Origin: Candidatus Multivoradales bacterium
GTDB lineage: Bacteria; Acidobacteriota; Thermoanaerobaculia; Multivoradales; JAHEKO01
Assembly: GCA_965223155.1 (NCBI GenBank)
Contig: CBDCVR010000015.1
Coordinates: forward strand, 672,001-736,000
Length of the DNA stretch: 64,000 nucleotides
Direction of reading: 5' to 3'
Part shown: positions 11,490 through 22,970 of the stretch, in pieces
How positions within the stretch are numbered: position 1 is the stretch's first letter
Layout: each line of letters starts with the position of its first letter
Translations under genes and position numbers: made by a program
Notes under the pieces: generated by a model
Seen by the model: the letters and a program-made list of their open reading frames with translations, nothing else
Told to the model about the DNA's origin: nothing
Database searches by the model: none

Positions 11490-13222
11490 GCGGTCCGGAG
11501 CGTCCAGAGCGCCCGGAGCGTCGTGAGAGCCGGGGCAAGGCGGAGTCCACTCGCGGCAGCCACTTCATCAAGGCGATGATCGAGGCCGACCTCGCCTTGG
11601 GCAAGCACGACTCGATCCGCACCCGCTTCCCACCGGAGCCCAACGGCTACCTCCACATCGGCCACGCCAAGTCGATGTGCCTCAACTTCGGCCTGGCCCG
11701 GGAGTTCGGCGGCACCTGCAACCTGCGCTTCGACGACTCGAATCCCCTTACCGAGCGCCAGGAGTACGTGGACGCCATCCGGCGGGACATCGAGTGGATG
11801 GGCTTTTCCTGGGACGAGGAGCGCTTCGCGTCCGACTACTTCGAACAGCTCTACGCCTGGGCGGTCGAGCTCATCCAGAAGGGCCTCGCCTACGTGGACG
11901 ATCTCTCCGCCGAGGAAATTCGCGCCCACCGGGGCACGCTCACCGAGCCGGGCACGAACAGTCCGTATCGCGACCGCGCGGTCGAGGAAAACCTGGATCT
12001 TTTCGAGCGTATGAAAGCCGGCGAGTTCGAAGACGGAGCCAAAGTGCTCCGCGCCAAGATCGACATGGCGGCCGGCAACCTCAACCTGCGCGACCCGGTC
12101 CTCTACCGGATCCTCAAAGCCGAGCACTACCGGCGCGGCTCCGACTGGTCGATCTATCCGACCTACGACTTCACCCACGGCCAGTCCGACTCGCTCGAAG
12201 GCATCACCCACTCGCTCTGCACCCTGGAGTTCGAGGATCACCGGCCGCTCTACGACTGGTTCATCGACTCGCTCGGCATCTACCCGTCCGAACAGACCGA
12301 GTTCGCCCGGCTCAACCTCTCCTACACCGTGCTCTCCAAGCGCAAGCTCAAGCGCCTGGTCGAGGAGGGGCACGTCGAGGGCTGGGACGATCCGCGCATG
12401 CCGACGCTCTCCGGCCTACGGCGGCGCGGCATCCCACCGGCGGCGATCCGGGACTTCTGCGACCGCATCGGAGTGGCCAAGGCCGACAGCCTGATCGACG
12501 TGGCGCTCCTCGAGCACTGCGTGCGCGAGCATTTGAACAAGTCCGCCCCTCGGCGCATGGCGGTGCTCGATCCGCTCAAGGTGGTGCTCGAGAACTATCC
12601 CGAAGATCGGGTCGAAGAGCTCGACGCGGTCAACAATCCGGAAGACGAATCCGCCGGTAGGCGCAAGGTGCCCTTTTCGCGCGAGCTCTGGATCGAGCGC
12701 GCCGATTTCCTGGAAGACCCGCCCAAGAAGTTCTTCCGGCTGGCTCCCGGACGCGAGGTACGCTTGCGCTGGGGCTACTTCATCAAGTGCGTGGACGTCG
12801 TCAAGGACGACGCCGGCGAGGTCGTCGAGCTTCGCTGCACCTACGATCCGGAGACCCGCGGCGGCCACGCCCCGGACGGCCGCAAGGTACGGGGCACCAT
12901 CCACTGGGTCTCGGCCGCCCACGCCGTCGAGATCGAGGCCCATCTGATCGACCGCCTGTTCACACGGGAGAACCCCGACGAAACCGACACAGGCGGCGCC
13001 TTTCTGGACAACCTCAATCCGGATTCGACCTCGATCCGGAGCCCAGCCTACGCCGAGCCGGCCGTGGCCGAAGCCGAGCCAGGAACTCCCATCCAGTTCG
13101 AGCGTCTCGGCTACTTTGCCCGGGACGCCAAGACGACCGGAGCCGAGGAGCGGCCCGTCTTCCTGCGCACCACGACGCTGCGCGACACCTGGGCCAAGCT
13201 CCAGAAGCGACGCTCGGGCTGA
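11486..13222 (+). CDS. glnS: Glutamine--tRNA ligase
   Basis: [49 protein letters not shown]. Confidence 0.95.
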
Positions 13223-13232
13223 GGTCGGCGGC

Positions 13233-14123
13233 CTACTCGCCTCGGGCTTTTTCGAGCTCGGCCAAGTACGGCTTCAACGCGCGATTGGCGGTGTGGCCGA
13301 TGTGGAGAACCGCTCGCTCGCCGACCTCCAGATACCGGACCGTCAGCCCGTCGGCCAGAGCCAGCGCCATCGCCAGCTGCATCGTGTCGTAGTCGTAGAG
13401 GGCGGTCTGGGCGGCCGCCTTCCGGCCGCGCCCCAGGCCCAACCGCCCGAGCGGGCCGGCCAGCCGGCCGGGCGCCGAGCGATAGACGTCGAGCCCGATC
13501 CGGTGCCGATCCAGAATCCTGAGCAATGCCGCCGTCCGGACGACGAGGAAGTGCGTTCGCGGCAGGCGCAGAACCGACCCGTCCTGCTCATCGACCGCGA
13601 CCTCGCGCACGAATCCGGGGTCGTCCGGCACCGCCAGGAAATCCTCCTCGCGCCACGCCACCGGTCCGAAGAGCTTCGGATCGAAGACATAGCAATCGTG
13701 ATCCAGCATCGTGAAGTCGCGACCGATCGAGCGCACCACCGCTTCGAGCACCGCCCCGTGGCGCAGAAACGTGCCCGGAAGGGTCGGCAGCCGAAGGCCT
13801 CGCGCTTCCGGAAACTCGCGACCGATCGTCTCGATCCCGGCGTCCGCCACTCCGTTGTACAGCAAGAGGATTGGCACCTCTCGGGGCACGAGCTTGAGAC
13901 AGAGCCGGAGCCAGCGCATGGTCTCGGGCACGACCACGAGCACCGCCGGCCGCTCCTCACTGGCCACCCCGGCGAAAAACTCCCGCAGCCTGGGCAGCGC
14001 CCGCGCCAGCCGCCGCCGATTCACCGGCTCGGCCAGCCACCGGTATCCACGAACGCCCAGGCCCGGCAGATGAGCATGCCGCCTGAGACGGCGGAGCAGG
14101 CGATTCTCGGATCGGCTCGTCAC
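13233..14123 (-). CDS. Hypothetical protein, possibly GT-A glycosyltransferase-like
   Basis: 296 aa ORF with LDHDC (DxD-like) motif; host-like codon usage. Confidence 0.5.
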   Translation of the reverse strand: MTSRSENRLLRRLRRHAHLPGLGVRGYRWLAEPVNRRRLARALPRLREFFAGVASEERPAVLVVVPETMRWLRLCLKLVPREVPILLLYNGVADAGIETIGREFPEARGLRLPTLPGTFLRHGAVLEAVVRSIGRDFTMLDHDCYVFDPKLFGPVAWREEDFLAVPDDPGFVREVAVDEQDGSVLRLPRTHFLVVRTAALLRILDRHRIGLDVYRSAPGRLAGPLGRLGLGRGRKAAAQTALYDYDTMQLAMALALADGLTVRYLEVGERAVLHIGHTANRALKPYLAELEKARGE

Positions 14124-14186
14124 GGGCCGAATCTATCGGGAGCGGAAAGGCATTGAGGGCAACTTAGCGACATCTCTTGCTCCCAG

Positions 14187-14216
14187 TTGACAACGGACGA
14201 TTGACAGAGCTATAAG
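14187..14216 (+). promoter_or_regulatory. Candidate sigma70 promoter TTGACA-N18-TATAAG
   Basis: Near-consensus hexamers ~95 bp upstream of the + strand island operon. Confidence 0.4.
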
Positions 14217-14309
14217 ACAACCAGTGGTTGAGTGATTGAGTGGCCTGTTCAAAGTGGGCAGGCTTGTGTTTACGGGTTCGTGAACCTGTTGGCAACACGG
14301 GGAACGGAA

Positions 14310-15383
14310 ATGGATCGCAAGAAGTGGTTCCTAGAAGTAGGAAAGCATTTTGGATACCTCGTACTGGGATTCGTGGTTCCAGTAGCAGTAGTCGTCTGGC
14401 CCTATTGGTCAACTCTCAGATGGAGGCCAACCTTCTTGCCGCTCGCCTTGTTCCTTTTCTTCACGTTCCTGTTGTTGCTCTTTCTTTCGAATCAACTAGG
14501 CCAAGAAGAAGTCGAAAGGGGGCCAGAGCTCCAATCGTTCGTGGATTTCGTGCTCTGGAGTGGCAAGCGGGCCGTTCTGGCGGCGGCCATCATAGGGGCT
14601 CTCGTTCTCTTCTTGTACTTTTCGGTGCCATATGACCCCAGTAAGAACTCGGTCACATACAGGCTTGGAGAGGCGCTTGGACTCTATGTTGGGATCGTCG
14701 GAGTTCTTATCGGGCTTCAGTTCCTGTACTGGCAGGACCACGCCATTACCGACTATCAGCAACTCCTGGCGGCGATGACAAACGATCTGAAGCTCGCCCA
14801 TCGGAACAGGGAGCCGCTGTCCCTTGTCTTCATGGCACCAAACATCGGCTACTTTCGAGCCCTTGACGACCACCTTCGACAGGACCCAAACGGAGATTCC
14901 TCGATGGCCCCACAAACAAAGTCGGTTGGGAACACTGCAGGTGGACTCTACGAGGAATTTCGCCAGCAGGCAGTCGTCTCCGCACCGAGGGGAAGCACGA
15001 TCGTTTGTCACGAGCGCAAGCACTTCGCCAGCTTGTACCGGGCCTACTGCATCCAAGCGAAGATGTCCGACGCGGACACGAGAACCTTCGCGGATAAATG
15101 CGCGAAGGAAGCGACGTCGCTCCTGAGCAGCTTTGAGGGGCTCGGAGGGGTCGTCAAGGAACTCAACCCAGGCGATTTTCCGCGAGAAATAGTGGTAATC
15201 GGTCCTGTTTGCTACCTCTTGTTTCCGCACGGCCTGCCAGTTTGGAAGCAAAGTGAGTCCACGTACGAGCCCAGCACGGATCCACCGATCGGAGGGCTCG
15301 CGAGTCTGATCGCCTATCGCCGCGAGGATCGAATCCTTGCCCGCATAACCCAGAAACGAATTGAAGAACTTGGAGGCACCTGA
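14310..15383 (+). CDS. Hypothetical membrane protein (about 4 N-terminal TM helices plus soluble domain)
   Basis: Hydrophobic N-terminal half; first gene of tightly coupled operon. Confidence 0.7.
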   Translation: MDRKKWFLEVGKHFGYLVLGFVVPVAVVVWPYWSTLRWRPTFLPLALFLFFTFLLLLFLSNQLGQEEVERGPELQSFVDFVLWSGKRAVLAAAIIGALVLFLYFSVPYDPSKNSVTYRLGEALGLYVGIVGVLIGLQFLYWQDHAITDYQQLLAAMTNDLKLAHRNREPLSLVFMAPNIGYFRALDDHLRQDPNGDSSMAPQTKSVGNTAGGLYEEFRQQAVVSAPRGSTIVCHERKHFASLYRAYCIQAKMSDADTRTFADKCAKEATSLLSSFEGLGGVVKELNPGDFPREIVVIGPVCYLLFPHGLPVWKQSESTYEPSTDPPIGGLASLIAYRREDRILARITQKRIEELGGT

Positions 15384-15385
15384 AT

Positions 15386-16387
15386 ATGAAGAAGTTCCTC
15401 GTCACCCTCGCGATTCTCGGGCTGCTAGGACTCGCCGCCACATTGTGGAAACGTAGCGAGCCGCCTCCGAAGGACCTTGATGCGCCCGATGAGGTCAACG
15501 TGGCCATCGTCTCCATCGTCGAGATCCCACCGATCGTGGACTTGCGGGAGGGCTTTCGCGAACGCCTGGCCGACCCGATAGTCGAGGCGCGATACCGGTT
15601 TACGTTCGAGGAATTTCATGCCCAGGGAGACTCTACGCTCGTTGCGCAAGTTGCCGACGAGGTTAGTTTGTCCAGGCCAGACGCTGCTTATGTCCTCGGC
15701 ACACCTCTCGCAGCGGCCATCCAGAACAAATCCCCCGACCTTCTGGTTGTCCAGGGAGCAGTCACCGACCCCGTTTCTGCTGGATTGGCTGACTCTTGGC
15801 TTGGTTCGGGGCGCCAGTATGTAGCTACCTCCGACCTTCCTCCCATCGTGCGAATCCTGGAAACACTCAACCGCCTGATCCAAGGCCAGCCGATTGGAGT
15901 CATCTACAACCCGAGCGAAGGCAACTCGGTCGCCGTCATCGAGAGGGTCCGGACGGAAACCAAACGGCGGGGGATCTCGCTAGTCGAGCAGCCGGTCGCA
16001 AGTGGAGGGGATGTCGCCACCGCAACTCAGCGTTTGGTCGGCTCGGTAGGGGCCCTTTTCGTCCCTCCAGACAATACGGTGCACGCCAACCTGGCATCCC
16101 TGGGCGCGATTGCCGACCAAGCCAAGCTCCCTTGGTTTGCAACCACAGGCTCGGCGCTCCAAGAGGGTGCGTTCGGTGCCGTGGAGACGAGCTTTCGGGA
16201 ACTTGGCTGGGAGGCTGCCAACCTCCTGCTAGCTGTCCTGGCCAAGAACGACGCATCGACCATGCCCATTCGCCATCTGGAGGATGCCGACATCGTCCTC
16301 GAAGCGGACCGTCTAGAGTTCTTCGGCCTTGACGCCCGCCGCCTCGGTGACGTGTCGGATGTCCGTCTCATCAACGCTTCCGACTGA
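15386..16387 (+). CDS. ABC transporter substrate-binding protein (ABC_sub_bind/TrpX-like)
   Basis: Signal anchor; AVTDPVSAGL, IGVIYNPSEGNS, VPPDNTV motifs. Confidence 0.85.
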   Translation: MKKFLVTLAILGLLGLAATLWKRSEPPPKDLDAPDEVNVAIVSIVEIPPIVDLREGFRERLADPIVEARYRFTFEEFHAQGDSTLVAQVADEVSLSRPDAAYVLGTPLAAAIQNKSPDLLVVQGAVTDPVSAGLADSWLGSGRQYVATSDLPPIVRILETLNRLIQGQPIGVIYNPSEGNSVAVIERVRTETKRRGISLVEQPVASGGDVATATQRLVGSVGALFVPPDNTVHANLASLGAIADQAKLPWFATTGSALQEGAFGAVETSFRELGWEAANLLLAVLAKNDASTMPIRHLEDADIVLEADRLEFFGLDARRLGDVSDVRLINASD

Positions 16388-16390
16388 CCT

Positions 16391-17275
16391 GTGTGGGAAG
16401 TAAAGGTCGGGATAGTTGCCGCGGAGGGGTTGATCTTTTCAATGGTAGCGCTTGGAGTCTTCGTCTCATTCCATTGGACCCGATTCCCGGATCTGACACC
16501 GGACGGGACCTTTATTCTTGGCGCTGCGGTAGCTGGAGCCTTTAGCGAGGCCGTCCCGTCGCCCCTCCTGATTCTCTTCATCGCCGCGGTAGGCGGTGCA
16601 ACATTCGGCGCCATTACTGCAATTCTCAACCGCTTGCTCCGTATTCCGGCCGTGGTCGCCGGAATGCTCGTAGCTTCCGCGTTGTACTCGATTTCTTGGT
16701 TGCTAATGGGGGCACCCACCCGCCTTGTGCCGAGAGCACGCACAATCGCCGGCAGCCTGGACCTTGAACCTGCGCTCTGGGCGTTGGTCGCATTTCTCTC
16801 TGTCCTTGTGGCAGCCACGGTTGCCGGCCTAGCTCTCTGCGGAGACTCCTCAGACGGACTCAAAATACGGAGCGTCCGGGAGAATCCCCGACTAGAGGTC
16901 GAAGTCGGTCTGTCGGACAACAAGGCAACCCTGGTAGGACTGGGCGTCGGGAATGGCTTGGTGGCGCTGGCCGGCGCGCTACTGACACAGCGTAGCTTCA
17001 CGGCAGATATCCAAATGGGTGTTGGAATCACCATCGTGGGCCTTGCAGGGCTCATGCTCGGAGGAATGCTAGTTCGAGACAACTCGAGAACATACGTACT
17101 CCTGCTCGCAATCGTACTCGGGAGTCTGCTCTACAAAGCCTTGGTCTTCTTGGCATTGGAACTCGGACTTCCAGCCGAGTCGTTTCGCCTCATGACAGCG
17201 GTAATTCTCGGCGGTGGGTACTTGCTTGTCCACCGCGAGTCGATGGATTTCCTCCGCAGCTTGAGGTGGTCTTGA
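16391..17275 (+). CDS. ABC transporter permease
   Basis: FPDLTPDGTF, GNGLVALAGAL, ADIQMGVG motifs. Confidence 0.85.
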   Translation: MWEVKVGIVAAEGLIFSMVALGVFVSFHWTRFPDLTPDGTFILGAAVAGAFSEAVPSPLLILFIAAVGGATFGAITAILNRLLRIPAVVAGMLVASALYSISWLLMGAPTRLVPRARTIAGSLDLEPALWALVAFLSVLVAATVAGLALCGDSSDGLKIRSVRENPRLEVEVGLSDNKATLVGLGVGNGLVALAGALLTQRSFTADIQMGVGITIVGLAGLMLGGMLVRDNSRTYVLLLAIVLGSLLYKALVFLALELGLPAESFRLMTAVILGGGYLLVHRESMDFLRSLRWS

Positions 17276-17955
17276 AACTCCAGCGGGTACAGCGCACCTT
17301 CCCGGCCTTCGAGCTGGACATTCCCGATCTCTACATCGGTGCTGGCAACATGACCTTCCTCATCGGGGGCAATGGCAGCGGCAAGAGCGTTTGGCTTCAA
17401 GCGCTCTTGGAGGAGAGTCGAGCGCCAGGATCCGAGGCTTGGCCGGTCGTCGGGCTTGTTCGCCAGCATGCCGATCACAATCTGGCACCTTCGCTGACAC
17501 TGGAACAAAATCTCATAACAAGACTCGCCTCTCGCGGCTTTGGTGCCCGACTCTGGCCGGCTCGGTTCCTCCGAGGCGAGGTCGGGAAACTGCTGGAGCC
17601 GCATCCAACGCTTCGTCACCAAGCCACGGTTCGCGTCGACAGGCTTTCGATGGGGCAGCGACAGCTCTTGGCCTACCTGACATCGTCACAGCGGGACGTT
17701 GAGCTGCTCTTGCTGGATGAATTCTTGGCAGCTGCCGACGTCATCGTTCGGAAGCAACTCCTAGCCTCGGTCCGAAGGTTCCTTGCTCAATGCGACCGAG
17801 CCGCCATCATTGTGTCGCACGACCTTCGACTGGTGATCGACGAAGCTAGTCGGGTGCTTGTCTTCAGCGGAGGGCGCTTGGTGGCAGATGTACACTGCGA
17901 CACCTCCCCTTTCTCAGAAAAAGAGATGCTTCGATTGATGCGCGTCAGCGAATGA
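17266..17955 (+). CDS. ABC transporter ATP-binding protein
   Basis: Walker A GGNGSGKS, LSMGQRQ, LLLLDE, VSHDL. Confidence 0.85.
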   Translation: MVLKLQRVQRTFPAFELDIPDLYIGAGNMTFLIGGNGSGKSVWLQALLEESRAPGSEAWPVVGLVRQHADHNLAPSLTLEQNLITRLASRGFGARLWPARFLRGEVGKLLEPHPTLRHQATVRVDRLSMGQRQLLAYLTSSQRDVELLLLDEFLAAADVIVRKQLLASVRRFLAQCDRAAIIVSHDLRLVIDEASRVLVFSGGRLVADVHCDTSPFSEKEMLRLMRVSE

Positions 17956-18908
17956 GGGGATCGCACTGGCTCGGGCTGTTCTTTGTGGCGACCGTGGTCG
18001 CATCGATCGCCTACTTTCTGTCCCCTCGGAGCGGAGCTCTAGCCGGCTCCGTGGTAAGCGCGTCACTTGAGGAACAACCGCTGAGAGGAGAAGTCGTGGC
18101 CGCGCTTCGCCTCATCGAGGGTGATCACGGAGAAATTACGGCAAACCGAATCGCAGAGCTCAGAACTATCGCGAGCCAGGGCCTGTGGCGGCAGGGGTGT
18201 TCCTCTGACTTCGAGGTGGCTCTTACCACTGTCATCAAGTACTTCGACCTCCCATTTCCGAAGCCGTGGGGCCCTGAGAGCATCGAAGTGCTCTGTGACC
18301 CCGTTCGCGTTATTTACCCCGACGCCAACGACGGTCTCGATCAAACTGTGGTCCAGCTCGAAGACTCGAGCCTATTCAAATCTAACGACGTCGCCGAGCT
18401 CATCGATACTTGTGCGCGCTTCGAGGCTGGCTCAATAAGAAGTACCGTCTCGATCCAGGACCGAGCCTTCACGTTGTACAACGTCGCTTCGCCTGAGAGG
18501 GCCAATCAGCGGAAGAAGGTTGCTACCGACCTGCGCCTGATTCGAGATCGATACTGCCAGCGGGGTGCCAACAGGCACGTCCTAATAGTCGCGGCTCGAA
18601 TTCACAACCCTGGCCCCTTGCCCAACGCAATTCGTGGGCACGCAGTTGTCGAACTTCGACCTCGGACCGCGAAATCAGGCGTTGTGGTTCCTCTAACGTT
18701 GACAGGAGACGGAACGATCCCGGCCGGGCAGAGCACCACTAGTATTTTCCTCTCAGCTACTATCGACTCGCCCGAAACCAGCAGTCAGCCCAGCGTCAGC
18801 GATCTCTACCGGCACGGAGCCGACGCAACTCTCGGTCTCACAGACATCTATGAACGGGAAATCAAACTTCCGTTTGAATTCTCGACGACGGCCGATCGCC
18901 GGGATTAG
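17952..18908 (+). CDS. Hypothetical exported/membrane-anchored protein
   Basis: N-terminal TM/signal; ATGA overlap with ATPase gene. Confidence 0.65.
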   Translation: MRGSHWLGLFFVATVVASIAYFLSPRSGALAGSVVSASLEEQPLRGEVVAALRLIEGDHGEITANRIAELRTIASQGLWRQGCSSDFEVALTTVIKYFDLPFPKPWGPESIEVLCDPVRVIYPDANDGLDQTVVQLEDSSLFKSNDVAELIDTCARFEAGSIRSTVSIQDRAFTLYNVASPERANQRKKVATDLRLIRDRYCQRGANRHVLIVAARIHNPGPLPNAIRGHAVVELRPRTAKSGVVVPLTLTGDGTIPAGQSTTSIFLSATIDSPETSSQPSVSDLYRHGADATLGLTDIYEREIKLPFEFSTTADRRD

Positions 18909-19630
18909 TCCTTTCGCCACACGTAGGACCTGTAGGAATGCGAACCATTCTTCAGCAAAGGCGCCAAGCCATTTGTCATGTAGTCGTTGAGTTCGTTGAG
19001 AATCTCACATCCTGGAGAGCGCGGTCCTGCAATCACCTCGAACTGCCTCCTGCGGAGGCTGTTTCCCTCGACTAACGCTCTCCAGACGCCACTAGAGAGA
19101 TCCACGTTCCTAACCTCGGTGAGACCACACGCTGCCGCGAAGGCTTCTAGGTCATCGAAGAACTCCTTCGGCCCTCCGTCAGCAATGACCAGCAAACCCT
19201 TCTTCTTGAGAGTTCTGGCCGAGCCCGCGACGAATCCTGAAACCGATTCGATCGAGTGCATTGCTTCAAGACAGAAGACGACATCGATCGAAGCGTGCTG
19301 AATCGGCAAAGCGCCTCCATCAGAAACCACTGCGAAGATGCTGGATCTCCTGGACCCGGCCTCGAACGCATGGCTAGGAAGCCGGTCCAGACAGATAACG
19401 GAAGCCACGCGCAGGTTCTCAAGGAGAATTCGCGCCGGCCCTCCGTGACCGGAACCAACATCTAGCAAGCGCCTCCCGGCCAGAGGCATAGAGCCGGCTA
19501 CCTCTAGGACGAGTTCCCGTTGATCCGCGGGATACCCCCGGGCTGCCGACCGAGCGTAGCCATGATTCAAGAAGGGCAGCTTTCCGGGCGGTATCAAACG
19601 AGCCGCCTGCTCGAACCAAGCTCGGGACAC
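18905..19630 (-). CDS. Class I SAM-dependent methyltransferase
   Basis: FLNHGY, LLDVGSGHGG (motif I), IDVVFCLEAMH, LKKKGLLVIAD. Confidence 0.85.
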   Translation of the reverse strand: MSRAWFEQAARLIPPGKLPFLNHGYARSAARGYPADQRELVLEVAGSMPLAGRRLLDVGSGHGGPARILLENLRVASVICLDRLPSHAFEAGSRRSSIFAVVSDGGALPIQHASIDVVFCLEAMHSIESVSGFVAGSARTLKKKGLLVIADGGPKEFFDDLEAFAAACGLTEVRNVDLSSGVWRALVEGNSLRRRQFEVIAGPRSPGCEILNELNDYMTNGLAPLLKNGSHSYRSYVWRKD

Positions 19631-19670
19631 AAGAGCCTCTTACTATCTCAGTGCCGCCTGTTGCACAGAA

Positions 19671-20534
19671 TCAACAATATTGGGAACGAACACTTGCTAG
19701 CTCGTCAAGAAGAACTTCACCAAGGTCTGTACATCTGGCATGTCGCTCCAAACCGCTCAAGCCCTCTGCAAACTTCGCTCGATAATCGTCCACAACTGCT
19801 GATCCCACTCGAACGCTTGGCGGCCACCGAGAATGCAGCATCAGCAGCCTTGCTAGGACGAAAACCGCGTGGAGTACTGCATCCAACGGTCTTGGTTCCG
19901 TTCGAAAAGGAGAAGGGCCGTACTCCTCGGGATTCTGCAGCGGCTGAAAGAAATAGTTCCGAAGAAGAAGCTCGAGATGGGTCGCCTCATGAACTAGAAG
20001 GTCGAGGAGCAAGATCTGAGAATTGAATGCACTTTCTTCAAGAAAGACAGCGCCGAAAGCGCTAGTACTAGTGGCTGAGCGAAGCCGGTGAGCACGGATC
20101 GAGACTACGACAGGAGCCAGCCGAATCAGGATTGCTTGTTGCTGCGGCCAGATCCTTTCCAGGAACACAAGGGAGTTCGACAGTTGCAACTGTCGCATCT
20201 CGCTTTCCGAGGAAAGACACACATCTTCTGCGAAGGCCAAACCACTCGAGAATTCTGAAAGAGCGGCTGCCACCCAGCCTCTAGAGCCAGCCGCTTCGGA
20301 AGTAAGCAATCCAGGAGATGGCCGGACAGCGTCGCGACTCAGGTCGTAGTTCGTGCCGACCGGACCCACAGCTGCCCAATAAAGATCCGGAGAGCGGTCC
20401 TCTATCTTGAAACCGTGATTTCCGAATCTCGCGCGGAGTCGCAACTCGACAGCTTGCCAAAAAAAATCAAGCAACGGAACAAGTCCGTCGAGATCCGGCT
20501 CTACCTCAACGAGTGACCGGACCGGTACTTGCAC
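19671..20534 (-). CDS. HEXXH-motif protein (aKG-HExxH peptide beta-hydroxylase-like)
   Basis: SATSTSAFGAVFL, LLVHEATHLEL, SPFRTEPRPLDAVLHAVFV match the S..AFGA / HExxH / SPWR..PRP...LH pattern of the family. Confidence 0.8.
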   Translation of the reverse strand: MQVPVRSLVEVEPDLDGLVPLLDFFWQAVELRLRARFGNHGFKIEDRSPDLYWAAVGPVGTNYDLSRDAVRPSPGLLTSEAAGSRGWVAAALSEFSSGLAFAEDVCLSSESEMRQLQLSNSLVFLERIWPQQQAILIRLAPVVVSIRAHRLRSATSTSAFGAVFLEESAFNSQILLLDLLVHEATHLELLLRNYFFQPLQNPEEYGPSPFRTEPRPLDAVLHAVFVLARLLMLHSRWPPSVRVGSAVVDDYRAKFAEGLSGLERHARCTDLGEVLLDELASVRSQYC

Positions 20535-20539
20535 GCGAC

Positions 20540-20713
20540 TCAGGTCGGTTGACGTGCTGGACGTACTGCCCTCGATCTCATCCTGCCCTCAGTGCTGGAC
20601 TTTTCGCCCTTCGGAGGTGCGAAGCAATAGGATCGTGAGTGTGCGTCAAGCCTTCGAGCAAGCTCTTCCAAATCCACCTCCAGATGAGATGGAAGCTCAG
20701 CTTTTGTTGTCAT
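20540..20713 (-). CDS. Putative RiPP precursor peptide (57 aa)
   Basis: GAGGAG RBS 6 nt before ATG; acidic leader-like LEVDLEELARRLD then HSRSYCFAPP; ends 5 bp before the HExxH gene. Confidence 0.55.
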   Translation of the reverse strand: MTTKAELPSHLEVDLEELARRLDAHSRSYCFAPPKGEKSSTEGRMRSRAVRPARQPT

Positions 20714-20735
20714 CTCGGGCTCCTCGTTGTTCACA

Positions 20736-20744
20736 ATTGTACCA
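20736..20744 (-). promoter_or_regulatory. Candidate extended -10 promoter TGGTACAAT
   Basis: TGn-TACAAT ~22 nt upstream of the small ORF start. Confidence 0.45.
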
Positions 20745-20960
20745 AAGAAGGGACTTTTCGCTAGGGTTCCTTCCCCTGAGTACGACGGCACAGGGCGCTC
20801 TGCCTCTATCAATTGTTACCTCGCCCGGGACTTCTCCAAGCAGATACAGTGCCAGGCTTAGAGCTTCAGGGTTCTCGATCTCTCCTCCCGCGGTTGGCAA
20901 TCCTCCACGGTCCGGCTACACTCGCGCGGTCACTGCGCAGGCCGGTTTCGAACCCCGCGG

Positions 20961-22970
20961 ATGTCTTCCTGGAAGCCAACAGACGTCGACCACGTAGCGG
21001 TCCAGACCATCCGGTTTCTGGCGGTGGACATGGTCGAGCGCGCCAACTCGGGGCATCCGGGCGCGCCGATGGGGCTGGCCCCTCTGGGCTACACGCTCTT
21101 CGCTCGCCACCTGCGCCACCATCCCGAAAACCCCGACTGGGCCAACCGGGACCGGTTCGTCCTGTCCTGCGGACATGCCTCGGCGCTCCTCTACGCCCTG
21201 CTGCATCTCGCCGGCTACGATCTGCCGCTCGACGAGCTCCGGAACTTCCGCCAGCTCGGCTCGAAAACACCCGGCCATCCCGAGCACGGGCTGACGCCGG
21301 GAGTCGAGACCACCACCGGTCCGCTCGGCCAGGGCATCTCGACGGCTGTGGGCATGGCGATCGCCCGCGACAAGCTGGCCGCCACCTTCAACCGCGACGG
21401 CCAGGAGCTTTTTGATTTCCGCACTTGGGTGATCGCGAGCGACGGCGACTTGATGGAAGGCATTGCCTCGGAGGCGTGCTCGTTCGCGGGACATCTCCGG
21501 CTGGGCTCGCTCAAGGTCTTCTACGACGACAACCAGATCTCGATTGACGGCTCGACCGACTTGACCTTCTCCGAAGACGTCGGCAAACGCTACAAGAGCT
21601 ACGGCTGGAACGTGCTGCGGGTCGAGGACGGCAACGATCTCGAAGCCCTCGATCGGGCGGCCACCCGCGCGGCCGAGCACGAGGACCGGCCGACCCTGGT
21701 CATGGTTCGTACCCACATCGGTTTCGGCAGCCCCAACAAGCAGGACTCCTCGGCGGCCCACGGCTCGCCCCTGGGGACCGGCGAGGTCGAGCTCACCAAG
21801 CGCAACCTGGGGTGGCCGGCCGAGCCGACCTTCCACATCCCGGAAGAGGCGCGGGAAGCCTTCGCGCCGGTCGTCGCGCGTGGCAAGCGCCTCGAGGCCG
21901 AGTGGAGCTCGCTGCGCCGGACGCACGGCGAGCGCCACCCTGATCTCGCCGCCGAGCTGGATCGGCGCCTGGCCGGCAACCTTCCCGAGGACTGGCGCCA
22001 GCATCTGCCGTCGTTCGCTCCGGAGGACGGCCCGGTCGCCACCCGCAAGGCCTCCGGAACGGTCTTGAACGCCCTGGCTCCCGCCTTCCCCGAGTTCGTG
22101 TCGGGCTCTGCCGATCTGACCGGCTCGAACAACACCTATCTGGCCGACGACGGCGACTACTCGGCAAGCGATCCGGTAGCGCGGAACCTCCGCTACGGCG
22201 TCCGCGAGCACGCCATGGGCGCGATCGTCAACGGCCTGGCTCTGACCAAGGCCTTTCTTCCGTACGCCGGTACGTTCCTGGTCTTCTCCGACTACATGCG
22301 GGCGGCGGTGCGCCTGGCGGCCTTGATGGAGCAGCGCTCGATCTTCGTCTTCACCCACGATTCGATCTTCCTGGGCGAGGACGGACCCACGCATCAGCCC
22401 GAAGGCCATCTGGCGTCCCTGCGCGCGATCCCGAACCTGACGGTGCTACGGCCGGCCGACGCCAACGAGGTCGCCGCCGCCTGGGCGGTCGCGATCGAAT
22501 CACCCGACACCCCTTCGGCGATCGTCTTGACCCGGCAGAAGCTGCCCATCCTGGCCGAGACCGCGACGCTCGCCGCTGAGGGCGTCCGCCAGGGCGCCTA
22601 CGTCCTGGCCGGGGCCGACGAAGACGCCGAGGGACTCTTGCTCGCCACCGGCTCGGAGGTCGCCCTGGCACTCGAAGCGCGCGCCCGTCTGGCCGAGGAA
22701 GACATCGCCGTCCGCGTCGTCAGCATGCCGTCCTGGGAGCTCTTTGCCGCCCAGCCCCGGGACGTTCGGGACGGGGTGCTGCCGCCCGAGCTCACCGCCC
22801 GGCTCTCGGTCGAGGCCGGCTCGACCCTGGGCTGGCACCGGTGGGTGGGGAGCGCCGGCGACGTTCTCGGCATCGATCGCTTCGGAGCGTCGGCGCCGGG
22901 GAGCGATCTCGCTGAGCCCTTCGGCCTGACCGCCGAAGCCGTGGCCGGGCGTTTCCGAAAACTGCTCTAG
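20961..22970 (+). CDS. tkt: Transketolase
   Basis: SGHPGAPMG, DRFVLSCGH, TTGPLGQG, GVREHAM, GEDGPTHQP. Confidence 0.97.
   Translation: MSSWKPTDVDHVAVQTIRFLAVDMVERANSGHPGAPMGLAPLGYTLFARHLRHHPENPDWANRDRFVLSCGHASALLYALLHLAGYDLPLDELRNFRQLGSKTPGHPEHGLTPGVETTTGPLGQGISTAVGMAIARDKLAATFNRDGQELFDFRTWVIASDGDLMEGIASEACSFAGHLRLGSLKVFYDDNQISIDGSTDLTFSEDVGKRYKSYGWNVLRVEDGNDLEALDRAATRAAEHEDRPTLVMVRTHIGFGSPNKQDSSAAHGSPLGTGEVELTKRNLGWPAEPTFHIPEEAREAFAPVVARGKRLEAEWSSLRRTHGERHPDLAAELDRRLAGNLPEDWRQHLPSFAPEDGPVATRKASGTVLNALAPAFPEFVSGSADLTGSNNTYLADDGDYSASDPVARNLRYGVREHAMGAIVNGLALTKAFLPYAGTFLVFSDYMRAAVRLAALMEQRSIFVFTHDSIFLGEDGPTHQPEGHLASLRAIPNLTVLRPADANEVAAAWAVAIESPDTPSAIVLTRQKLPILAETATLAAEGVRQGAYVLAGADEDAEGLLLATGSEVALALEARARLAEEDIAVRVVSMPSWELFAAQPRDVRDGVLPPELTARLSVEAGSTLGWHRWVGSAGDVLGIDRFGASAPGSDLAEPFGLTAEAVAGRFRKLL

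Follow-up and report, generated by a model that had tools for sequence, protein, structure and literature searches.

The alpha-ketoglutarate (aKG)-HExxH enzymes are a recently recognised family of oxygenases, and its described members sit in larger gene clusters together with other modifying enzymes (PMC13060819). The same paper calls these enzymes ubiquitous but "not class-defining" and their reactions unpredictable at present. Their known target residues are His, Asp, Phe, Gln, and Pro (PMC13060819, PMC12257519), with Pro being the residue hydroxylated by PesO of the nitrilobacillin cluster (PMC13060819). PflC and PosC, encoded in Pseudomonas clusters for peptides that are ribosomally synthesised and post-translationally modified (RiPPs), are stand-alone aKG-HExxH enzymes that use a linear, leader-bearing precursor (PMC12636437). 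They act by hydroxylation at several Gln residues and, at an Ala, break the backbone oxidatively. Their activity requires the precursor's N-terminal sequence, their cluster is described without a protease, PflC activity is gated by leader binding, and PflC also carries out a metal-dependent hydrolysis of truncated substrates (PMC12636437). Here we analyse a three-gene unit in a 64,000-nucleotide stretch of the Candidatus Multivoradales bacterium genome (Acidobacteriota; assembly GCA_965223155.1, contig CBDCVR010000015.1, positions 672,001 to 736,000), referred to as the window. In this unit a 57-codon open reading frame (ORF), a gene for a stand-alone HExxH protein, and a gene for an S-adenosylmethionine (SAM)-dependent methyltransferase follow one another on the minus strand.

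We read the unit as a RiPP-like peptide-HExxH-methyltransferase operon that was acquired horizontally, and put the probability of this reading at roughly 55%. It is carried by the family membership and predicted fold of the HExxH protein, the arrangement of translation signals around the small ORF, and a controlled co-fold of the predicted peptide with the enzyme. If correct, the three genes would be an unusually clean system for HExxH chemistry alone and for the reading of a leader. They could also reveal whether ribosomal peptides undergo hydroxylation and then O-methylation.

The likeness to PflC and PosC lies in a stand-alone HExxH enzyme, a linear, leader-bearing precursor (a candidate one here), the absence of any gene for a protease, and a predicted model with the target residue beside the iron. 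The differences lie in what surrounds the enzyme. The pfl cluster, as far as it is described in the accessible text, has an MNIO-nitroreductase, a GNAT, and transporters in addition, and its precursor is marked by a nitrile-hydratase-like leader, a Gln run, and an ARMD motif. The locus in the window has no counterpart to any of these and carries a SAM methyltransferase instead. PesO and BpmH, the latter from the biphenomycin cluster, are likewise stand-alone aKG-HExxH hydroxylases that tailor RiPPs (PMC13060819, PMC12257519). They are accessory enzymes in large clusters defined by MNIO, Asn-synthetase-like enzymes, and peptidases, whereas at our locus the HExxH protein is the only oxidative enzyme.

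These precedents bear on how new the unit is. An initial annotation of this DNA, made from the sequence alone, had stated that HExxH domains of this type accompany radical SAM enzymes and act as aKG-dependent peptide beta-hydroxylases. That is correct but incomplete, as stand-alone PflC, PosC, and PesO have been published. The further suggestion of an undescribed RiPP class with HExxH as the primary enzyme is overstated: PflC and PosC (PMC12636437) as well as PesO (PMC13060819) act on linear precursors, and an HExxH enzyme acting first and alone on such a precursor is already described. We found no published cassette of peptide, HExxH enzyme, and methyltransferase only in the literature, though the supplementary neighbourhood tables of PMC12636437 may list such clusters. 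It is plausible that the minimal unit is an undescribed combination within a known kind of system.

Identity of the HExxH protein

The HExxH protein matched TIGR04267 of NCBIfam ("aKG-HExxH-type peptide beta-hydroxylase") with 68.1 bits (E = 9.4e-19; cut-off 40). The match runs over residues 124-279 of the enzyme and positions 7-177 of the 177-position model, and a whole-genome search agrees. The initial annotation had placed the enzyme in this family and proposed such a profile search, and the placement holds. No Pfam family, peptidase families included, matched the protein at E <= 0.1. We aligned it with 23 matches from a search of representative sequences (alignment A1, 24 sequences in all). 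Residues W129, P130, G161, H182, E183, H186, L189, R215, H222, V226, T269, and G272 are invariant in this alignment. The conserved His and Arg residues of the HExxH and SP.R..(P)RP...LH motifs are presumably the ligands of the metal and of 2-oxoglutarate. Compared with most relatives, the protein is short by about 30-40 residues in its variable N-terminal part.

A full scan of 1.84 billion representative sequences gave 1040 matches at E <= 0.001, most of them stand-alone proteins of about 300-340 residues. The best of these scored 96 bits with 35% identity, and identity was at best 35-37% with the C-terminal two thirds of the protein covered. Because the enzyme is no closer than this to its relatives, and in its C-terminal part only, it samples unexplored sequence space of the family. 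A word-indexed search returned six relatives besides the query, all with E values of at least 3.7e-8.

The predicted structure agrees with the profile match. An AlphaFold2 model built with A1 had a predicted local distance difference test score (pLDDT) of 92.1 and a predicted template modelling (TM) score of 0.91. In a Foldseek search of the PDB its top match was ChlH (8s5f; E = 4.9e-11, TM score 0.71), followed by SjiH (3e-6). ChlH is the HExxH domain of ChlB, a radical SAM/HExxH fusion protein. A profile of A1 searched against 177,635 PDB sequences returned ChlH as its sole match (3e-21), with the same motifs aligned. ChlH and the window's enzyme have the HExxH and SP.R....RP...LH motifs in common; they differ in that identity over the structural alignment is 17-18%. 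ChlB was reportedly described by Morishita et al. in Nat Chem in 2024. On sequence and model together, the protein is a genuine aKG-HExxH oxygenase, though a very divergent one, and by its family it would carry out Fe(II)/alpha-ketoglutarate-dependent oxygenation of a peptide.

The HExxH motif itself would also fit an ordinary zinc metalloprotease, in which case no hydroxylation would take place at the locus, and PflC does hydrolyse truncated substrates in a metal-dependent manner (PMC12636437). The initial annotation had named a zinc metalloprotease model as grounds against its own proposal. The structural comparison went the other way, the best zinc peptidase reaching E = 0.22 and zinc peptidases as a group TM scores of at most 0.29. 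With a TIGR04267 match above cut-off, a ChlH-type fold, and no match to a peptidase family, we rejected this identity and give it hardly any credence.

The radical SAM/HExxH systems of the triceptide ChlB type and of the His-Xaa-Ser type have a fused or adjacent radical SAM partner, and none is present here. In the genome, which is 98.7% complete, 20 Radical_SAM matches were counted, all outside the window. The closest lie at contig positions 664270 and 780557, about 27 kb or more from the HExxH gene at 691671-692534. Neither YcaO nor MNIO had a match in the genome. Lan enzymes and proteases did not appear in the Pfam and NCBIfam scans of the nine ORFs at 13233-20713, and no family-directed search was made for them. 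The initial annotation had noted that radical SAM, YcaO, Lan enzymes, and proteases are all lacking nearby; for the first two this is borne out by family searches, while for the last two it goes as far as the general scans of these nine ORFs.

The small reading frame and its predicted contact with the enzyme

The signals on which the initial annotation had built, namely the extended -10 element, the GAGGAG, the small ORF, the 5-nucleotide gap, the HEATH motif, and the methyltransferase gene, are all present where it had placed them (Table 1). The pattern TGNTAYAAT occurs once in the window, both strands taken together, at this spot, against 0.25 occurrences expected. A sigma-70 scan with a required -35 match did not list the element. 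Of the genome's 68,735 ATGs, 1.5% are preceded by a Shine-Dalgarno (SD) core of six bases. The HExxH gene has no SD of its own in front of its GTG start, while the methyltransferase gene has AAGAGG 5 nucleotides before its GTG. SD cores are uncommon before long ORFs genome-wide, being found for 14% of 4444 ORFs of at least 300 residues when a five-base core before any start within the first 100 codons is counted; in the foreign operon both the small ORF and the methyltransferase gene have clear SDs. An exact 14-nucleotide repeat (CGACCTGAGTCGCG; minus strand, repeat family D4) is found at the junction of the small ORF and the HExxH gene (20534-20547) and again inside the HExxH gene (20333-20346). 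It is probably due to chance, since 8.3 kb should, on a rough reckoning, contain about 0.1 pairs of this kind.

To gauge this arrangement we used 5000 dinucleotide-preserving shuffles of the 426-nucleotide intergenic region, scored by criteria that were picked after the locus was seen. An ORF of at least 57 codons with an SD core arose in 1.6% of the shuffles. With the added demand that it end no more than 10 nucleotides from the next gene, the fraction fell to 0.04%.

Controlled co-folding of the peptide with the HExxH enzyme gave ipSAE values of 0.76, 0.79, and 0.75 in three runs, while the best of three controls reached 0.23. Of 80 solved complexes 58 reach the mark applied, as do two of 110 mismatched pairs; this calibration holds only roughly here, as our runs used their own alignment. 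The runs share at least 63% of their contacts, with a partner pLDDT of at least 56. Residues 7-23 or so of the peptide form a predicted leader helix, which rests on enzyme residues 1-9 and 24-32. Residues 25-34 (HSRSYCFAPP, nucleotides 20612-20641) are the predicted active-site segment. They contact enzyme residues 150-158, 179, 182, 183, 186, 190, 193-196, 210, 219, and 222, a set that corresponds to the HExxH helix and the conserved distal His, and C30 and F31 pair with residues 151-154. The last 23 residues of the peptide are basic and outside the predicted interface. The co-fold had been proposed in the initial annotation, which singled out the stretch HSRSYCF; it is this stretch that the models put at the active site, and the small ORF stands as the best candidate substrate. 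The models predict binding of the 57-residue peptide by the enzyme in a geometry expected of a leader-plus-core substrate. It seems unlikely that the score reflects memory of a solved look-alike complex, because identity to ChlH over the structural alignment is so low and the peptide has no known relative.

A co-fold shows binding geometry only, and the product of the small ORF might be translated and bind the HExxH enzyme as a partner other than its substrate, such as a substrate-mimicking inhibitor, a chaperone, or a gating adaptor. The basic C-terminus outside the interface would suit such a role, as would the gating of PflC by its leader (PMC12636437). Zincin-like folds hold their substrates as an extended strand, however, and the peptide segment at the metal site lies in just this way against enzyme residues 150-158. 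The literature on aKG-HExxH systems, in its accessible portions, also offered no precedent for a partner of this kind, and we regard this explanation as quite improbable.

Several results weigh against the RiPP-like reading. An ATG ORF of at least 57 codons was present in 20.6% of the shuffles, placing the length of the small ORF, taken alone, within chance. The peptide has no paralogue in the genome, no Atlas match, and no homologue in a collection of 5.8 billion proteins. Because that collection does not hold even the peptide's own sequence, the small ORF was evidently not called by the gene callers of the source. Its GC (guanine plus cytosine) content at the three codon positions (0.59/0.57/0.47) does not follow the pattern of the neighbouring genes and is uninformative. 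The co-fold values are measures of model confidence and speak to binding geometry rather than turnover. The nine ORFs scanned gave no match to a peptidase or exporter family. When the window's methyltransferase and peptide served as phmmer queries, the ORFs of 48 related loci (L003-L012, L014-L051) returned no match, and none of the loci inspected combines an HExxH gene with a methyltransferase of the same type. A Methyltransf_11 domain stood beside an HExxH gene in a single inspected context (L067). The ORF upstream of the closest HExxH relative with DNA context (L043) has no BLASTP similarity to the peptide.

With such points in view, the HExxH protein and the methyltransferase could be a tailoring pair for another substrate, be it a small molecule or a peptide or protein from a gene at another site, and the 57-codon ORF an untranslated open leader. 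The locus would then be an ordinary orphan tailoring pair. The unremarkable ORF length, the atypical codon-position GC, and the uncalled, homologue-free peptide all fit this account, as does the fact that the nearest characterised relatives of the methyltransferase act on lipids and sugars, not peptides. Set against it are the co-fold (0.76 against 0.23 for the best control, with the peptide in the active site) and the rarity among shuffles of an ORF with an SD and a stop 5 nucleotides before an SD-less HExxH start. Moreover, the aKG-HExxH members with an assigned activity in the accessible reports act on ribosomal peptides. On balance we consider this account doubtful, and retain the RiPP-like operon as the preferred reading.

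Table 1. Positions of the predicted features of the operon and its surroundings, numbered from the first nucleotide of the window.
Feature	Position	Strand	Remarks
Extended -10-like promoter element, TGgTACAAT = TGGTACAAT	20736-20744	minus	22 nt upstream of small-ORF ATG
Shine-Dalgarno sequence, GAGGAG	20720-20725	minus	6 nt before small-ORF ATG
Candidate precursor peptide, 57-codon ORF, product MTTKAELPSHLEVDLEELARRLDAHSRSYCFAPPKGEKSSTEGRMRSRAVRPARQPT	20540-20713	minus	ATG 20713-20711, stop 20542-20540
Predicted aKG-HExxH oxygenase gene, stand-alone, 287 aa	19671-20534	minus	GTG start 5 nt past small-ORF stop
HEATH motif	residues 182-186, nt 19977-19991	minus	read in HExxH translation
SPFRTEPRPLDAVLH motif	residues 208-222, nt 19869-19913	minus	read in HExxH translation
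Predicted class I SAM-dependent methyltransferase gene, 241 aa	18905-19630	minus	40 nt downstream of HExxH gene
Low-GC island, ~6.7 kb	14150-20900	both	from GC profile; holds operon and convergent plus-strand set

The methyltransferase and a possible order of events

The third protein of the unit matched Methyltransf_11 of Pfam with 45.5 bits (cut-off 21.2), and its translation contains LLDVGSGHG, the Gly-rich SAM motif. Judged by sequence, it is a class I SAM methyltransferase. The mycobacterial lipid O-methyltransferases have the class I SAM fold in common with it, residues 40-241 aligning with model positions 55-256 of 256, but the window's enzyme falls far below the cut-offs of their models. 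It scored 66.3 bits against 300 for NF045823 (phthiotriol/phenolphthiotriol dimycocerosates O-methyltransferase) and 53 bits against 400 for NF045825 (Mtf2), and belongs to neither family. Its best sequence matches in the PDB were 3bus (1e-5) and a D-glucose O-methyltransferase. The word-indexed search returned no relative of the methyltransferase at E <= 1e-10. Its position in the operon is what suggests that it may act on the peptide. The initial annotation had hydroxylation precede methylation; this order is not supported as it was stated, as it comes down to gene adjacency.

If the unit is a RiPP-like operon, transcription would begin from the extended -10 element, and ribosomes would load at the GAGGAG and translate the 57-residue peptide. 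Coupled re-initiation 5 nucleotides downstream would then serve the SD-less HExxH gene. The amphipathic helix of the peptide (about L7-D23) would dock as a leader on the N-terminal helix of the enzyme, placing H25-P34 above the metal site formed by H182, E183, H186, and H222, as a strand alongside enzyme residues 150-158. Fe(II)/alpha-ketoglutarate-dependent oxygenation would be expected in the Y29-A32 region. One option is beta-hydroxylation of an aromatic or other side chain, at one or more positions, within Y29-C30-F31. The other, modelled on the action of PflC at small residues, is alpha-hydroxylation at A32 with cleavage of the backbone. Methylation from SAM would come last, most simply on the new hydroxyl. 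Export of the product and a biological role for it would presumably follow.

A more far-reaching version can be drawn from the same elements. The locus would amount to a minimal RiPP pathway of two enzymes, with the aKG-HExxH enzyme as the sole class-defining catalyst and a short helical leader. Hydroxylation would fall on Tyr-Cys-Phe, cleavage at Ala32 would replace a protease, and an O-methyl cap would yield a beta-methoxy residue. The product could be taken up again by the neighbouring importer of the same island, as for signalling or metal scavenging. Taken as a whole this version is speculative, and we think it unlikely.

The low-GC island and related loci

The initial annotation had noted that the genes lie in an island of lower GC, and the GC profile bears this out. 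GC is 0.55-0.62 over 14000-20999, with 0.65-0.73 to the left and right of it. A search of 40 relatives did not find the HExxH gene in any. The distance from the gene left of the island to the transketolase gene is 2.5-3.1 kb in four congeners and 7.76 kb here, and none of the island's proteins is encoded within 1.5 kb of the transketolase gene in five relatives (G005 included). Logan contigs from four runs, which come from two samples of one study and possibly from the source of the assembly, span both GC boundaries without differences. As both boundaries are bridged, the island is therefore not an assembly chimera. Its ends have no flanking repeats, no tRNA, and no Rfam element, and Rfam gave no match at E <= 0.1 in 13000-22000. 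The island is probably foreign DNA that was acquired horizontally.

Foreign DNA could also be silent or decaying in its host, with the operon having no current function. The foreign GC, the failure to find the HExxH gene in the 40 relatives, and the lack of any counterpart in the collections searched would agree with this. All three ORFs are intact, however, with the invariant residues of the family kept, and the promoter and SD signals are intact as well. We hold a silent island to be very unlikely.

The same island carries a convergent gene set on the plus strand (14232-18908). It includes a multi-pass membrane protein (383-residue ORF) without a family match and an ATP-binding cassette (ABC) system made up of a PF04392 substrate-binding protein, a BPD_transp_2 permease, and an ATPase. 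This system is an importer, because a substrate-binding protein is present. The PF04392 protein is TrpX-like, with 139 bits, below the cut-off. Also in the set is a 318-residue protein that matches no family and carries a membrane anchor at its N-terminus; the stop of its gene overlaps that of the methyltransferase gene by 4 nucleotides. A defence system was considered for the island and rejected: PADLOC returned only a match of the methyltransferase domain to mad2 and a weak transmembrane match, both of which we discounted.

In all collections searched, the operon stands as a singleton. A search with a six-sequence alignment gave 10 loci in a genome scan and nine in a metagenome scan, mostly long fused forms or short contigs, and many related loci encode N-terminally extended HExxH proteins of 450-660 residues. 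The closest HExxH relative with DNA context is on a metagenome contig of 1316 nucleotides (L043; E = 1e-22). There a co-directional ORF (1-144, cut by the contig end) stops 1 nucleotide before the ATG of the HExxH gene (146-1084). This layout, resembling that of the window's small ORF and HExxH gene, counts in favour of the RiPP-like reading. The C-terminus encoded by the L043 ORF reads ...YRVRYCGDGDRWSNWRAGV and has a Tyr-Cys pair, as in SYCF of the window's peptide.

Among 400 other genomes from the phylum of the window, 30 encode an HExxH domain (G189 counted), none of them from the window's order. Beyond this phylum it was found in two of 301 genomes of the Bdellovibrionota, the phylum of G432, and in two of 401 genomes of the phylum of G435 (Ignavibacteria, the genome of L010), with no close relative in either. 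In the phylum of G1136 one of 401 genomes encodes it, which is G1136 itself (Actinosynnema, the genome of L006), and here too no close relative came up.

Other arrangements of HExxH genes were seen among these loci. At L067 (1076-5436, minus strand) a gene for a 457-residue HExxH protein has downstream of it, in the same orientation, one for a 950-residue fusion of Carbam_trans_N, Carbam_trans_C, and Methyltransf_11, a pairing that might act on hydroxyls made by its oxygenase. At L070 (5975-8577), from the window's phylum, genes for a radical SAM enzyme, a small 2OG-Fe(II) oxygenase, and a stand-alone HExxH protein of 289 residues stand in a row, as confirmed with Pfam. L072 and L077 of the same phylum have a layout like that of L070, judged by ORF size and a CxxxCxxC motif only. 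At L092 (1152-5278) a 30-codon ORF ends 13 nucleotides upstream of a 319-residue HExxH gene, which is divergent from two ORFs that by the look of their sequences resemble a periplasmic substrate-binding protein and a histidine kinase. The ten longest representative matches, examined for fusions of HExxH and methyltransferase, contain no methyltransferase domain. One representative match, P0032 (524 residues), has its HExxH domain (344-511) fused to a canonical 2OG-Fe(II) oxygenase domain (PF13640, 96-182), bringing two different alpha-ketoglutarate oxygenase folds into one chain.

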